DNA of 29,656 nt from an uncultured bacterium. Its GTDB lineage: Bacteria; Hydrogenedentota; Hydrogenedentia; Hydrogenedentales; JAEUWI01. The DNA lies in assembly GCA_937895305.1 (NCBI GenBank), contig CALAXS010000130.1:1-29656 (forward strand), in the 5' to 3' direction. Below the pieces are notes generated by a model. It worked only from the letters and a program-made list of their open reading frames with translations, was not told the DNA's origin and ran no database searches. The position numbers and the translations under genes are program-made. Below are positions 22,306-28,500 of this stretch, in pieces. Positions within the stretch are counted from its first letter, which is position 1; every line of letters begins with the position of its first letter.

Positions 22306-24021
22306 ATGTCAATCCGTTTCGTAAATGCAATTCTTTTCTCCATTCTGGTCTTTTCCGTTGTACTCACACCCCAGTCCCCCGCCCAGGCCAAGGAGGATTT
22401 ATTGCCCTGGACACTACGTACCCATTACTCCTTCAGTCGGGACACCATGACTTTAAGCCTCGACGAGGAGCGTGCCATGTGGCAGCTCAAGGTGGGTGAC
22501 GAACAGATTCTGGCCGATGATCTGGCCTTCGCCATCATCCTGGCAGACGATACCGAACTGCGGTGCCATGATCTTGGATTGGCAAAGACGACGCGTTCCC
22601 TCCATCAGGAAGGGCCACTTGGACCCTACGCCAAATACGAAATCCTGTTCCCCGTTAAAGACGGAATGGAAGTGCGCTATGAGATGACCCTGGCCAAAGA
22701 ACGGCCCGTATCCTTTTCCACCCTTCATGTGAAAAATGTAGGGGCTGCGCCCATTGACATTAAGACCTTGCGCATACTGGAAGCCCCGGCTGGAAGTATC
22801 CATTCCCTGAGTCCGGGAACCTTGTGCATTCAAAGGCACGGCAAAATTACGGGGGGTTCCCCTGTGGTGGATACCCAGGGCGAAGCCATTGCCATGCAAT
22901 ACCACGACCCCACAAGCAACGCCAGCTGGCTCGTAGGCCTTTCCCCCAGAGGACAGGGACGAAGCACCATGCGCTTTGATGCCTTTGGTGAAGGCTGGCA
23001 AGGCCAGGTGGAATCCCAGTTCCAACCCGCAGCACAGTTACAGCCGGGGGAGACCCTGCAATCCGCAGAAATGATCGGCGTCTTCGGACAACAACCCATC
23101 GCTAACCTGGACATGTACTATTCCTGGGCATACAGCACCCTCGAACGTTCGCTCAAGGCTACCCGACCTATTGAAGCATGGGTCACCGTTAGCGATCAGG
23201 GCAGCTTTAACGAATTGCTGGACATGACCGAGCACTGGAAAAGCGCCCGGATAGACCATGCGCTAATTCCAATGGGATGGGAATTACCACCGGGAAGTCA
23301 GCAGGGTGGAGACCGCTTTCCCCGTTCTATCGCCAATGCAGCCAGCGAGCTACAAAAACGAAAATACAAAGCCGGGATCAGTTTTGATCCACTGGCAATG
23401 AAAAAAGGGGACGGTGACTGGATTGGTAAATCCGCTGATGGGCAAATCTGGGCGAATCCTGCCCGTGCGCTGGGTAAAGCAGCAGTTCAGGAACGTGCCC
23501 TGTGGTTGAAAAAATCAGGCTTCTCGTTCCTCGTGCCAGCATCCTCGGGTATTCCTGAAGAGGTGTTACAACAATTCGGCTTGTCCCGGGGCCAGGCCAA
23601 TCGATTGGCATTGGAAGCCATCGGTGAGGCATTGCCCGATACAAGCCTCTACCCGCCATCGTCCATCACCAAGGGCATCGCGGGCAGAGACTCCTGGTTA
23701 CGTGCCTCGGCTTCGGTAGCGAGACTGGCAAAATATGGTGTCGCCGTAGGCCCCCTGCAACTGGACACGACCAGTATGGATAATTTGGGCAAAGAGAATC
23801 TGGATGCCTTGCGCCTTTGGCCCGGTCCTCTGGAAATAACGGGCAAGGCCAAGAACAGCGATCGTAAAGCCATCGGCGAAACCATTGGTACCAAGAAACT
23901 TTCGGGTTCACCTATGGATCTGGAAAGTCTTGTGCCCCTTCACTGGGAAGCCAAAGCCCATCGCGAGGGCAGTGCAGATGAAGTGATTCGCTTCAATAAG
24001 TCTGCAGTGACCACGCCCTGA
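22306..24021 (+). CDS. Exported GH36/alpha-galactosidase-like protein, probably non-catalytic
   Basis: Signal peptide and N-terminal beta-sandwich. TIM-barrel-like segments HALIPMGWE, RFPRSI..SELQKRKYKAGISFDP and GFSFLV align by eye to the GH36 segments IDDGW, KFP.G...GIW.AP and GF.Y.K.D, with the acidic residues lost. Confidence 0.55.
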   Translation: MSIRFVNAILFSILVFSVVLTPQSPAQAKEDLLPWTLRTHYSFSRDTMTLSLDEERAMWQLKVGDEQILADDLAFAIILADDTELRCHDLGLAKTTRSLHQEGPLGPYAKYEILFPVKDGMEVRYEMTLAKERPVSFSTLHVKNVGAAPIDIKTLRILEAPAGSIHSLSPGTLCIQRHGKITGGSPVVDTQGEAIAMQYHDPTSNASWLVGLSPRGQGRSTMRFDAFGEGWQGQVESQFQPAAQLQPGETLQSAEMIGVFGQQPIANLDMYYSWAYSTLERSLKATRPIEAWVTVSDQGSFNELLDMTEHWKSARIDHALIPMGWELPPGSQQGGDRFPRSIANAASELQKRKYKAGISFDPLAMKKGDGDWIGKSADGQIWANPARALGKAAVQERALWLKKSGFSFLVPASSGIPEEVLQQFGLSRGQANRLALEAIGEALPDTSLYPPSSITKGIAGRDSWLRASASVARLAKYGVAVGPLQLDTTSMDNLGKENLDALRLWPGPLEITGKAKNSDRKAIGETIGTKKLSGSPMDLESLVPLHWEAKAHREGSADEVIRFNKSAVTTP

Positions 24022-25659: not shown

Positions 25660-25783
25660 AAGGACATCTCCCACCTTTGCCAATCATCCGCAGTGTACGC
25701 CACTGTAACCGCCTGAACCAATTCAATAGCGTTTCCCCCTGTGGGTCTGGTTTGTTATGATACACGGAAGCTTTTTTACGCTA

Positions 25784-27499
25784 ATGAAACGGGTACATAT
25801 TCGTCTTATGCAACCAGATATAAATCAGACTTCCATCAAAAAATATATTTCAACAGCCCTGTTGTTTCTCATGCTCGGCATGAGCCTGCTCTTTTTCCTC
25901 AGCCCGAAGCAGGCGCGGAACCTCTTTTCAGGCTGGTTCAGCTCGGGGGGTAGCGGTACGCTGGTCTTGGGCACGGCTTCCAAGTCAGGGGCCTATTATC
26001 AGCTGGGTGATGCCCTGCGAAGCGAGCTCATGGCGCGGAGTAAATATACGATTGAGGTGTTGGAGACTGCCGGGTCGGTGGCGAATCTGGAAGCTCTGGC
26101 CCAGGGCAAGTGCGACGTGGCACTCATCCAATCGGGGCTGAGTGCTGATCTCAGTGAGTATGCGGCATTGGCAAAGGTGGGGCGTCAGTATGTGCACCTC
26201 ATCGTACCCAAAGACAGCGATATTAAATCCTTCCGTGACCTGGCCGGGAAACGGGTTGGCCTGGGGTCAAAGGAAAGTGGTTTTGCCAATCTGGGCCAGC
26301 GTGTTTTTGATTTTTTTGATTTTACACCAGCACCGGAACTGATTTATGACCATCGTGCCAATCTGGAAGAAGCCTTTCTGGATGGCGAAATCGATGCCGC
26401 TTTTACGGTTTATGGCCTCTTTACCCCTGCGGTAGAGGAGTTGCTCCATTCGGGGTGGTACACCCTCTTGCCGATTCCAGAATCCGCAGCATTGGCCCGT
26501 TACCTCCCCGGAACCCACGAGGAAATCCTGCCCCACAGTCTCTATGGCCCCGACCGCAACATTCCCCGCTCCGACAACAACAACTTTCTGACACTGGCGG
26601 TGGATACGTTGCTGGTGGCGCGTAACGATACAGCGGCCCAGGCGGTAACAGCCTTGCTGGGTGCCTTGTATGAAGCACCTTACCCGCGTGAAGCACGACT
26701 CAATTCGCTCACGGAAGCAGAGGGGCAGCAGGTGTATTCACTGCCCTTGCATGAAGCTGCAAAAAAATTCTATGCGCGCAAAGCACCCTTGACCTCAGAC
26801 CATTTTGAGATTGCGTCTTTCTTTCTTGCGGGCATGCTCTTTCTCGCCAGTGTGACCCATTACCTCCTGGAGCGGCGCAAGCGAAATCACCTGGAGCGGC
26901 AACGCCGGGCTATCGTGCCCTATTTCAATGAGCTACTGGAATATGGCCAACGCATGAAAAGCACAGAACAAACCGAAACGCTCATGCAATTGACCCATGA
27001 AATGATGGCAACACAGCATAAAGCGGAAGAACAATGGCTCGCAGGGGTACTCAATACAGAGCACATGGAAAACCTCTATGCGGTCTATAACATCCGCATT
27101 CGTAATGCCTTCAGCAAAATCACCAAACTACAACTCCAGCACCTCGGTGGGGAGTCTCCCCTTTCCAATACCAGCAAGCCCCCCACACACCACGATACCC
27201 CATGGCCTCCCTCACCAGAAGAGGTTACCCTGGAAACGGAGACCGTGCCCGAGCCCACCCTGCGCGAAACCGGACGGCATCCGTTGGTGCAGGCCCCGGT
27301 GAGCGAAGAATCCCATGAAGAAATGGTGTCCATTACCGATGTGGAAGGCATTGGGAGGGTACGCATCCGCCGTAAAATTACGCCAACACCGACAGAACCC
27401 GAAGTGGGGGAGGAGGAAGTCCTCCCGTCCGAGCCCCAAGTCGAAGAGAATGACGATGACGATGACAAAAACAAACCACAACTGGATCTATTCAGTTAA
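25784..27499 (+). CDS. TAXI-family solute-binding protein with two TM helices, a cytoplasmic helical domain and an acidic tail
   Basis: TM1 (ISTALLFLMLGMSLLFFL); TAXI motifs GTASKSGAYYQLG, TAGSVANL..L..G..DVALIQ, IKSFRDLAGKRV.LG...SG, LHEAAKKFY; TM2 (FFLAGMLFLASV); tail ..DDDDDKNKPQLDLFS. Start uncertain (25757, 25784 or 25808); 25757 sits inside a TG-n-TATGAT extended -10. Confidence 0.85.
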   Translation: MKRVHIRLMQPDINQTSIKKYISTALLFLMLGMSLLFFLSPKQARNLFSGWFSSGGSGTLVLGTASKSGAYYQLGDALRSELMARSKYTIEVLETAGSVANLEALAQGKCDVALIQSGLSADLSEYAALAKVGRQYVHLIVPKDSDIKSFRDLAGKRVGLGSKESGFANLGQRVFDFFDFTPAPELIYDHRANLEEAFLDGEIDAAFTVYGLFTPAVEELLHSGWYTLLPIPESAALARYLPGTHEEILPHSLYGPDRNIPRSDNNNFLTLAVDTLLVARNDTAAQAVTALLGALYEAPYPREARLNSLTEAEGQQVYSLPLHEAAKKFYARKAPLTSDHFEIASFFLAGMLFLASVTHYLLERRKRNHLERQRRAIVPYFNELLEYGQRMKSTEQTETLMQLTHEMMATQHKAEEQWLAGVLNTEHMENLYAVYNIRIRNAFSKITKLQLQHLGGESPLSNTSKPPTHHDTPWPPSPEEVTLETETVPEPTLRETGRHPLVQAPVSEESHEEMVSITDVEGIGRVRIRRKITPTPTEPEVGEEEVLPSEPQVEENDDDDDKNKPQLDLFS

Positions 27500-27516: not shown

Positions 27517-28500
27517 ATGCGTGCATGGCGATTTCACGAATTTGGAGCTATAGAAAATCTTGTCCTGGAGGAAGTAGGTATACCCGTTCCCAATAAAGAC
27601 GAGGTATTGCTGAAGCTGAACTTTGCTGCGTTGAACCCGGCCGACCACTTTTTGATCAAGGGACAATATCCACGCCCCGGTACACCGCCCTTTTCCGTGG
27701 GACGGGACGGCTGCGGCACAGTGGTGGAAGCCCCGGCAGACAGCCGTTTTTTTATTGGTGATAAAGTCATCGTTCTGCGTAGTGATCTGGGTGTGTCGCG
27801 CTCGGGCACCCTCGCTGAATACGTTTGTTGCCCGGAGGAATCTCTGGCCCCACTTCCCGGCGGATGGCGTGATGAAGAAGGTGCAGCAGGCCCTCTGGTT
27901 TTTCTCACCGCCTGGCAGGCACTCGTCGACCGGGGCCGACTCAAGGCGGGTGAGACCGTCCTTATCAATGGCGCATCGGGTGGTGTGGGAAGTGCCGCCA
28001 TTCTTCTGGCTAAGGCCCTCGGTGCCAAGGTGGTGGCTTTGTCCGGTTCAGAAAAAAAATGGCCTTCACTGCACGATTTGGGTGCAGACATGGTAGTGGA
28101 TTCCCGGTCGAAACATCTGGAGCAAGAAGTGAAGGGCGCACTGGGTGGCGGTCGTGTTGACCTGGTCATCGAAAATCTCGGCGGGCCTTTTCTCCAAAAA
28201 TCAATCAACCTTGTTAGTGTGAATGGACGCATTTGCGTCATCGGACTCCTCGCCGGATTCCAATCCGAGATCACCGTTGGTCATCTGATTTTTAAATGCA
28301 TCGAGATCCACGGCCTGAATGTAGGGGCCTATACCGCTGCTGAATCACAAATGGCGTGGAAGAAAATCGTTGCGGCACTGGATGATGCGAAACAGCGCCC
28401 AATCATCGATTCCAAATTCCCGCTGGGCAAGGTGCAAGAAGCTTTCGCCAAACTGGGTGAAGGCCCCCTGGGTAAAGTCGTCATCAACTGCCAGGGCTAA
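27517..28500 (+). CDS. NADPH:quinone oxidoreductase-like MDR-family dehydrogenase
   Basis: AALNPAD..G.YP..P..GRDGCG, FLTAWQAL, GETVLINGASGGVGSAAILLAKALGA, D.VIENLGG, GKVVI. No Zn-binding Cys set. Confidence 0.92.
   Translation: MRAWRFHEFGAIENLVLEEVGIPVPNKDEVLLKLNFAALNPADHFLIKGQYPRPGTPPFSVGRDGCGTVVEAPADSRFFIGDKVIVLRSDLGVSRSGTLAEYVCCPEESLAPLPGGWRDEEGAAGPLVFLTAWQALVDRGRLKAGETVLINGASGGVGSAAILLAKALGAKVVALSGSEKKWPSLHDLGADMVVDSRSKHLEQEVKGALGGGRVDLVIENLGGPFLQKSINLVSVNGRICVIGLLAGFQSEITVGHLIFKCIEIHGLNVGAYTAAESQMAWKKIVAALDDAKQRPIIDSKFPLGKVQEAFAKLGEGPLGKVVINCQG

Follow-up and report, generated by a model that had tools for sequence, protein, structure and literature searches.

A two-pass membrane protein with a TAXI domain

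The stretch of DNA analysed here, referred to as the window, covers positions 1–29,656 (29,656 nucleotides, nt) of contig CALAXS010000130.1 in assembly GCA_937895305.1, which derives from an uncultured bacterium of the phylum Hydrogenedentota. This study concerns one gene on its forward strand, at 25784–27499, whose predicted product combines two transmembrane (TM) helices, a TAXI-type solute-binding domain, a helical bundle and a long disordered tail. The tail ends in QLDLF, a peptide of a class that nearly all tailed members of a narrow protein family keep and that resembles the motif by which DNA polymerases and other proteins dock on the sliding clamp DnaN. The features of the gene and its product, with amino acid (aa) positions and the basis of each assignment in brackets, are the following:

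25784–27499, + strand: whole open reading frame (ORF), 571 aa plus stop, stop codon at 27497–27499 (translation)
25841–25915, + strand: TM1, aa 20–44, behind a basic N-terminus that contains 5 K/R (hydropathy; AlphaFold2 (AF2) helix 15–39)
25949–26776, + strand: predicted periplasmic TAXI-type solute-binding domain, aa 56–331 (PF16868, TIGR02122, Foldseek)
26801–26869, + strand: TM2, aa 340–362, followed by RKRNHLERQRR (hydropathy, AF2)
26870–27145, + strand: conserved, predicted cytoplasmic three-helix bundle, continuous with TM2 (alignment; AF2)
27152–27496, + strand: intrinsically disordered tail rich in Pro, Glu and Thr, aa 457–571, 115 aa (AF2 confidence below 50 throughout)
27338–27376, + strand: second conserved island, DVEGIGRVRIRRK, aa 519–531 (alignment of homologous tails)
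27443–27466, + strand: acidic run EENDDDDD, aa 554–561 (E554–D561) (translation)
27479–27493, + strand: QLDLF, aa 566–570, pentapeptide of the sliding-clamp-binding-motif class, followed by S571 and the stop codon (translation; QLDLFS occupies 27479–27496)

The sequence GGAAG lies 12 nt upstream of the ATG at 25784, and an alternative ATG is present at 25757. Homologue P0002 (96% identity) starts at the identical MKRVH residues. The translation of the window protein ends in ...EENDDDDDKNKPQLDLFS*, and its C-terminal stretch reads ...DDDKNKPQLDLFS.

Both profile and fold assign aa 56–331 to the TAXI family. The window protein matches PF16868 with E=1.6e-28 (100.6 bits, cut-off 27) and TIGR02122 with 111.5 bits (cut-off 84.35). 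In a full-length AF2 model, which was built with 43 homologues and has a mean predicted local distance difference test (pLDDT) score of 81, the TAXI domain (aa 58–331) exceeds a pLDDT of 90. Its top seven Foldseek matches in the PDB are all solved TAXI proteins, with E values of about 1e-19 to 2e-20, and the top entries (4DDD, 9IBO/8S4J and 1US4/8U79) have target-normalised TM-scores of 0.76–0.79. The fold is thus common to this domain and the characterised TAXI proteins VcGluP (8S4J/9IBO), TtGluBP (1US4/8U79) and the Ehrlichia protein (4DDD). Characterised TAXI proteins serve TRAP, or GltS, transporters (PMC12344293). They are soluble or lipid-anchored, an ordinary member being a soluble protein or lipoprotein of ~300–350 aa, whereas the window protein is 571 aa long, is held by two TM helices, carries a 230-aa cytoplasmic part and lacks a transporter partner. 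The elongated TAXI protein of Bordetella (PMC12344293) differs in architecture.

The topology follows from the position of the TAXI domain between the two membrane helices, which makes this domain extracytoplasmic, together with the distribution of K/R residues, of which 5 precede TM1 and 6 lie within 20 residues after TM2. Sequence and model together show the window gene to encode a two-pass inner-membrane protein with a cytoplasmic N-terminus, a periplasmic TAXI domain, and the bundle and disordered tail inside the cell, the cytoplasmic location of the tail being predicted by the positive-inside rule and the extracytoplasmic nature of TAXI domains. An earlier note, made by reading the sequence of the window, had described the same succession of TM1, TAXI domain, TM2, helical bundle, disordered linker, acidic run and terminal QLDLFS. 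Translation, hidden Markov models (HMMs), hydropathy and AF2 confirmed every one of these elements, and the cytoplasmic placement of the tail on which that note depended was borne out by the K/R distribution.

In the AF2 model, TM2 extends into the cytoplasm as one long helix (aa 338–393), followed by further helices at 397–419 and 425–454, and the helical domain at aa 363–454 reaches a pLDDT of ~90–95. The bundle carries the family signature ...WLxGxLDTEHMENLYAVY.IR.RNAF.KI. Its fold gave no Foldseek match against the PDB at E<=0.001 (best 0.22), its sole Pfam match was TaqI_C, below threshold, and its structural matches in the Atlas were only other TAXI-TM proteins and generic helical ones. 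The same TM1-TAXI-TM2-three-helix layout is found in two-pass TAXI proteins in the Atlas (395–481 aa, mostly from Pseudomonadota). Unlike these, the Hydrogenedentota clade adds a disordered tail of 53–273 aa with two conserved short motifs, and its narrow bundle sequence family sets it apart from the wide layout.

The terminal peptide and the family that carries it

A word-indexed search retrieved 57 close homologues with 40–96% identity to the window protein, 34 of which are long forms. The peptide is present at the C-terminus of all 34. Gln occupies its first position in 34/34 and Leu or Met the second in 34/34 (Leu in 22, Met in 12), Leu the fourth in 33/34 and Phe the fifth in 32/34, while the third position is free (M, D, L, E, T, K, S, R). 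The chain stops exactly at Phe in 30 of the 34 proteins. Upstream, positions -4 to -10 are mostly D/E in these homologues. G-P-D and an acidic run precede the peptide, and the linker that separates it from the bundle is 53–273 aa long and unalignable. Docking of the terminal peptide on the protein's own folded parts, which would suggest autoinhibition, was not seen in the full-length AF2 model.

The same ending recurs far beyond the close homologues. About 17 newly found, far more distant members end in QLDLF, QLTLF, QLSLF, QMTLF, QMKLF, QMSFF and similar peptides, and one of the family members, P0105, has only 35% core identity to the window protein yet a QLDLF terminus. A tree of 95 members groups the tailed proteins in a single clade (support 97). 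Of the 50 proteins in this clade, 46 have the ending Q[LM]x[LMF][FLC]; among the other four, two terminate in QMDLGF and QMGFEF, which are hexapeptide-like. Likewise, 14 of 16 complete family ORFs from representative genomes of the phylum, spread over several taxonomic families, end in the peptide class. These patterns show, at the level of sequence, a single origin of the tail and a strong retention of its terminal peptide while the linker drifts freely.

The termini of all stop-to-stop ORFs of at least 100 aa were scanned in the genome to which the window belongs (hereafter its own genome). The window gene is alone among 10,939 ORFs in ending in Q[LM]x[LM]F plus 0–3 aa, and the idea that this terminus is a signal common to other proteins of the genome was rejected on the same count. 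Since tailed members keep the peptide despite unalignable linkers and no other ORF of the own genome ends in it, it is not a product of chance but a short linear motif that purifying selection has conserved. The expectation in the earlier note that the motif would be kept in orthologues while the linker diverges thus held, both in the 34 long close homologues and in distant members with ~35% core identity. Its caveat that a QLxLF-like tail may occur by chance has lost its force for the same reasons.

The tail contains one further conserved element, the island listed above. Its consensus in the tailed family is D-x-[SE]-G-[IA]-[VG]-x-[VP]-R-[VIP]-R-[RKT], with YDTEASGAGSVRVRK and DSGIVSPPRPRRK as examples from homologue tails, and in most tailed members it lies 21–133 aa before the C-terminus. 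A loose core regular expression finds the island in 41 of 53 motif-bearing members, and it is clear by eye in ~35. The island is similar to a basic R-x-R-[RK]-x-[ST] site.

The family itself is narrow. A profile of TM2 plus the bundle, run against 1.84 billion representatives, returned 69 clusters only, and all named genome records with the family belong to Candidatus Hydrogenedentota, except a 2.5-kb contig labelled Aminicenantes. The gene is almost always single-copy; in G070 there is a second, partial match at a contig end. Five members (366–430 aa) have lost the TAXI domain: in them a loop of 35 aa joins TM1 to TM2, and both bundle and tail are retained. They terminate in QLDLF (three members) or in hexapeptide-like variants (two members). 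Because the TAXI-less members retain these parts, the conserved device would consist of the membrane anchor, bundle, tail and peptide, and the TAXI domain appears to be an optional input to it.

In sister clades, members without a Q[LM]xLF tail often end in another conserved peptide, [LV]P[DESH][IM][VL][LM][PE]P (LP[DE]IVLPP in its narrower form), plus a few residues. Such an ending was seen in P0036, P0047, P0054, P0078, P0093, P0097, P0100, P0103 and P0118 as well as in L066. This peptide may be an alternative docking motif.

Resemblance to clamp-binding motifs

The published clamp-binding consensus is QL[S/D]LF (PMC9690074), and a revised version has been given as Q-phi-x-[LM]-[FL] and Q-phi-x-[LM]-x-[FL] (preprint 10.1101/2025.08.20.671105). 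The family peptide fits both the published and the revised consensus, and its rarer variants fit the hexapeptide form.

The polymerases of the lineage provide a direct comparison. The UmuC-like polymerase of the own genome contains ...EEEGSQLDLFNTP... at ~aa 362, an identical QLDLF at the expected clamp-binding position, and its DinB-like polymerase carries QIELF. In the DinB orthologues of seven relatives, NQHQ is followed by LPLF, MTLF, LYLF or MRLF right after the little-finger domain. The peptides QLDLF, QMTLF and QMRLF are common to lineage polymerases and family tails. We also observed that in Hydrogenedentota DinB (L043–L049) the motif NQHQ[LM]xLF is internal and is followed by a conserved ~45-aa extension (...KWE.VLE..D.VR.KHGF...). 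In E. coli Pol IV the clamp motif is terminal.

The putative partner is present in the lineage. All 10 of 10 high-quality relatives encode a canonical DnaN, and the DnaN of one relative can be aligned over its whole length with solved beta clamps (E=1.6e-55 to 6AMS) and retains the C-terminal ...VVMPIRI.

With its match to the consensus, its location on a segment predicted to be flexible and cytoplasmic, and its conservation amid varying flanks, the terminal peptide has all the properties by which a clamp-binding motif would be recognized in a sequence. An invariant Gln is a hallmark of such motifs. The window protein shares with the clamp partners Pol II, Pol IV/DinB, UmuC, Hda and MutS/MutL the same peptide class on a flexible cytoplasmic terminus and the same pattern of variation. 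Unlike them, it spans the membrane twice, exposes a ligand-binding domain to the periplasm and contains no domain related to DNA; to our knowledge, the clamp partners described so far are all soluble proteins of DNA metabolism. Taken together, we consider a membrane-anchored clamp tether that captures DnaN the most likely reading of the family, with the chances that it is correct about evenly balanced.

Gene neighbourhood, alternative partners and meaning

Downstream of the receptor gene, one further feature of the window is relevant:

27517–28500, + strand: PIG3-type NAD(P)H quinone oxidoreductase (QOR), 17 nt after the receptor stop (Pfam/NCBIfam)

An oxidoreductase gene at this distance and the lack of an adjoining TRAP permease had both been pointed out in the earlier note, and both were verified, the oxidoreductase now being recognized as PIG3-type. 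A QOR gene lies 16–27 nt downstream of the receptor gene in three loci, namely the window, L019 (9744-) and L040 (2343–3332). One of the receptors paired in this way is the distant P0105 (35% identity), whose oxidoreductase is 54% identical to that of the window. The receptor and the PIG3-type oxidoreductase may therefore form a conserved gene pair. The window also holds a neighbouring enoyl-CoA hydratase gene on the minus strand, and the clade of the window protein is located near ispE. Another ORF of the window, at 22306–24021 (+ strand, 571 aa), has no Pfam or NCBIfam match and is syntenic with a 566-aa gene of L019 located between a PDZ protein gene and ispE. A search for a sigma-54 promoter near 25684–25783 gave no good match, and the matches across the window are not above chance.

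The context of the family differs by clade: ispE, enoyl-CoA hydratase and QOR occur at some loci, pspF, a porin and a TRAM methyltransferase at others, and unrelated genes elsewhere, with pspF and QOR as the only suggestive recurring neighbours. At 7 of 10 genome loci the receptor gene lies directly downstream, on the same strand, of a gene for a 350-aa sigma-54 activator composed of Sigma54_activat, AAA_lid_14 and HTH_8 without an N-terminal regulatory domain. The own-genome orthologue of this activator (69% identity) is divergently oriented from PilZ, PspA and two PspC genes, and the activator was identified as PspF because of this arrangement. The own psp locus, on contig C8 (L022 5454–9778), consists of PspC, PspC, PspA and a PilZ-domain gene, all divergent from pspF; a PilZ gene in a psp operon is unusual, and it recurs in L003 and L006. 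A gene for a ~1200-aa Ser/Thr protein kinase with WD40 repeats occurs within a few genes of family members in L004 (685–4293), L005, L008 and L038 (2752–6441).

Several observations weigh against the clamp tether. Among the representative genomes examined for the phylum, 135 in all, just 17 carry the family; such a patchy distribution makes it an accessory function and not a part of the core replication machinery. Met at position 2, present in 12 of the 34 tails, is not among the aliphatic residues that the revised consensus strictly allows; within the phylum, Met is normal at this position. Searches with PF02768, PF00712 and TIGR00663 did not find dnaN in the own metagenome-assembled genome, where it is not assembled because the genome is 88% complete. 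Moreover, a literature search for membrane proteins with clamp-binding motifs yielded nothing relevant, and we know of no integral membrane receptor that binds the clamp. The peptide is almost always located at the exact C-terminus behind an acidic run. Such a placement is not needed for clamp binding and could mean that the partner recognises Phe as a free C-terminal residue. In addition, proteins of the window's own clade extend beyond the motif by S, SR or CGE, and in P0003 the F of the motif is replaced by C. The adjacency to pspF at most of the genome loci also belongs on this side of the balance.

That adjacency raises the possibility that the terminal peptide, perhaps together with the island, holds some other protein of the cytoplasm. 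The best candidate belongs to the phage-shock (Psp) system, either PspF, the sigma-54 activator without a regulatory domain, or PspA; the window protein would then feed a signal from the membrane or periplasm into the envelope-stress response, much as PspB/PspC act on PspA-PspF. Besides the position immediately downstream of pspF, PspC and PilZ genes are also found upstream in L001, L003 and L006, and neither of the two short forms looked at among these loci, L007 and L009, has pspF as a neighbour. The window protein nevertheless resembles the PspB/PspC sensors only in being a membrane protein encoded beside pspF in a psp locus, and this in one clade; an assignment to this sensor type was rejected, as it contains no PspC (PF04024) or PspB domain, has no sequence relationship to these sensors, and the own psp locus on C8 is without a receptor gene. 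Members of the window's clade, in the window itself as well as in L019 and L023, keep the peptide although their genes lie away from pspF. The own-genome pspF is followed by a SpoU methylase gene, and the receptor gene is on a different contig. The pspF loci also have unrelated downstream genes in common, for a porin and a TRAM methyltransferase, so that the adjacency may reflect no more than synteny within one clade. We know of no Psp interaction mediated by a Q-L-x-L-F peptide, and the invariant Gln points to clamp motifs instead. A Psp partner is therefore an unlikely explanation in our view.

A hydrophobic C-terminal peptide could also act as a degradation or turnover signal for an AAA+ protease or adaptor, or as a tether for a modifying enzyme, and would then set the level or state of the receptor. 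This would agree with the 30 tails that end at Phe and with the acidic run and long disordered linker before the peptide, a layout similar to that of the SSB tip (DDDIPF) and of the chemoreceptor tether NWETF, which holds CheR and CheB. The WD40-repeat Ser/Thr kinases encoded near family genes in four loci and the likeness of the island to a basic R-x-R-[RK]-x-[ST] pattern fit the same idea. The window protein shares with the NWETF, SSB and ZipA-like tethers a physical layout in which a short invariant peptide stands at the end of a long, variable linker that extends from a folded anchor; unlike them, it has no chemoreceptor, OB-fold or FtsZ-binding domain. Membership in the chemoreceptor xWxxF class was rejected because none of the 34 motifs contains Trp and Pfam gave no MCPsignal match, that is, no chemoreceptor signalling domain. 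An SSB-type acidic tip was rejected as well: the tails have the acidic run and the terminal F, but at position -2 there is L/M and never P, so that the I-P-F of the SSB tip is absent, and there is no OB fold. Several members carry 1–4 extra residues after Phe, which indicates that a free Phe carboxylate is not required, and the pattern of variation, hexapeptide variants included, tracks clamp motifs. Turnover or enzyme tethering thus seems quite improbable.

Even less can be said for an ordinary membrane-anchored TAXI binding protein that serves a transporter encoded elsewhere, with a tail that is irrelevant or resembles clamp motifs by chance. HMM and fold both show an intact TAXI domain, and the genome does contain one DctM-type permease. 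However, this sole permease, a 721-aa open frame that is probably a fused QM, lies on contig C266 (L021, L052) beside a conventional 347-aa TAXI protein; because it has its own adjoining TAXI gene, the canonical TAXI-TRAP system is separate from the window gene. No TRAP permease occurs in the window, and no permease neighbours the gene at any family locus examined, as is also the case for two outgroup two-pass TAXI proteins. The TAXI-less members retain both tail and motif, and the peptide is kept across deep branches and hence is not a chance resemblance. We regard this explanation as highly improbable.

Returning to the clamp tether, the tail would serve as a flexible line, tens of nanometres long, that captures DnaN at the membrane, either as free clamps or as clamps remaining on newly replicated DNA. 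The outcome would be the sequestration of clamps or the attachment of replicating DNA to the envelope. The core of such a device would be the membrane anchor, bundle and tail. The TAXI domain would be an added periplasmic input, which probably acts via TM2 and the bundle on the oligomeric state or on the availability of the tail, and the GxVRVRRK island may give a second contact with the clamp or with DNA. The full version of this model, in which a ligand-responsive membrane receptor captures the sliding clamp and thereby sequesters clamps or pins clamp-decorated new DNA to the inner membrane, is put forward tentatively, and we think it rather doubtful as a whole. The earlier note had proposed just such a repurposed TAXI sensor tethering the clamp, which might link an external ligand to replication. 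The tethering half of that proposal has gained from the conserved motif, the cytoplasmic tail and the polymerase-like peptide, while the sensor half has been weakened by the TAXI-less tailed members and by the pspF adjacency in one clade.

If the model is true, the periplasmic environment or the state of the envelope, the latter in view of the linkage to pspF in one clade, would be coupled to chromosome replication or organisation in a way not described before. A clamp-docking peptide on an integral membrane receptor would extend the clamp interactome to the cell envelope and would offer a concrete handle on how some bacteria might tie replication, or the positioning of their chromosome, to the membrane or to signals from outside. 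For the wide family of two-pass TAXI 'receptors', which has no known output, the tail described here offers a first hint, at the level of sequence, that this architecture may have a partner in the cytoplasm.

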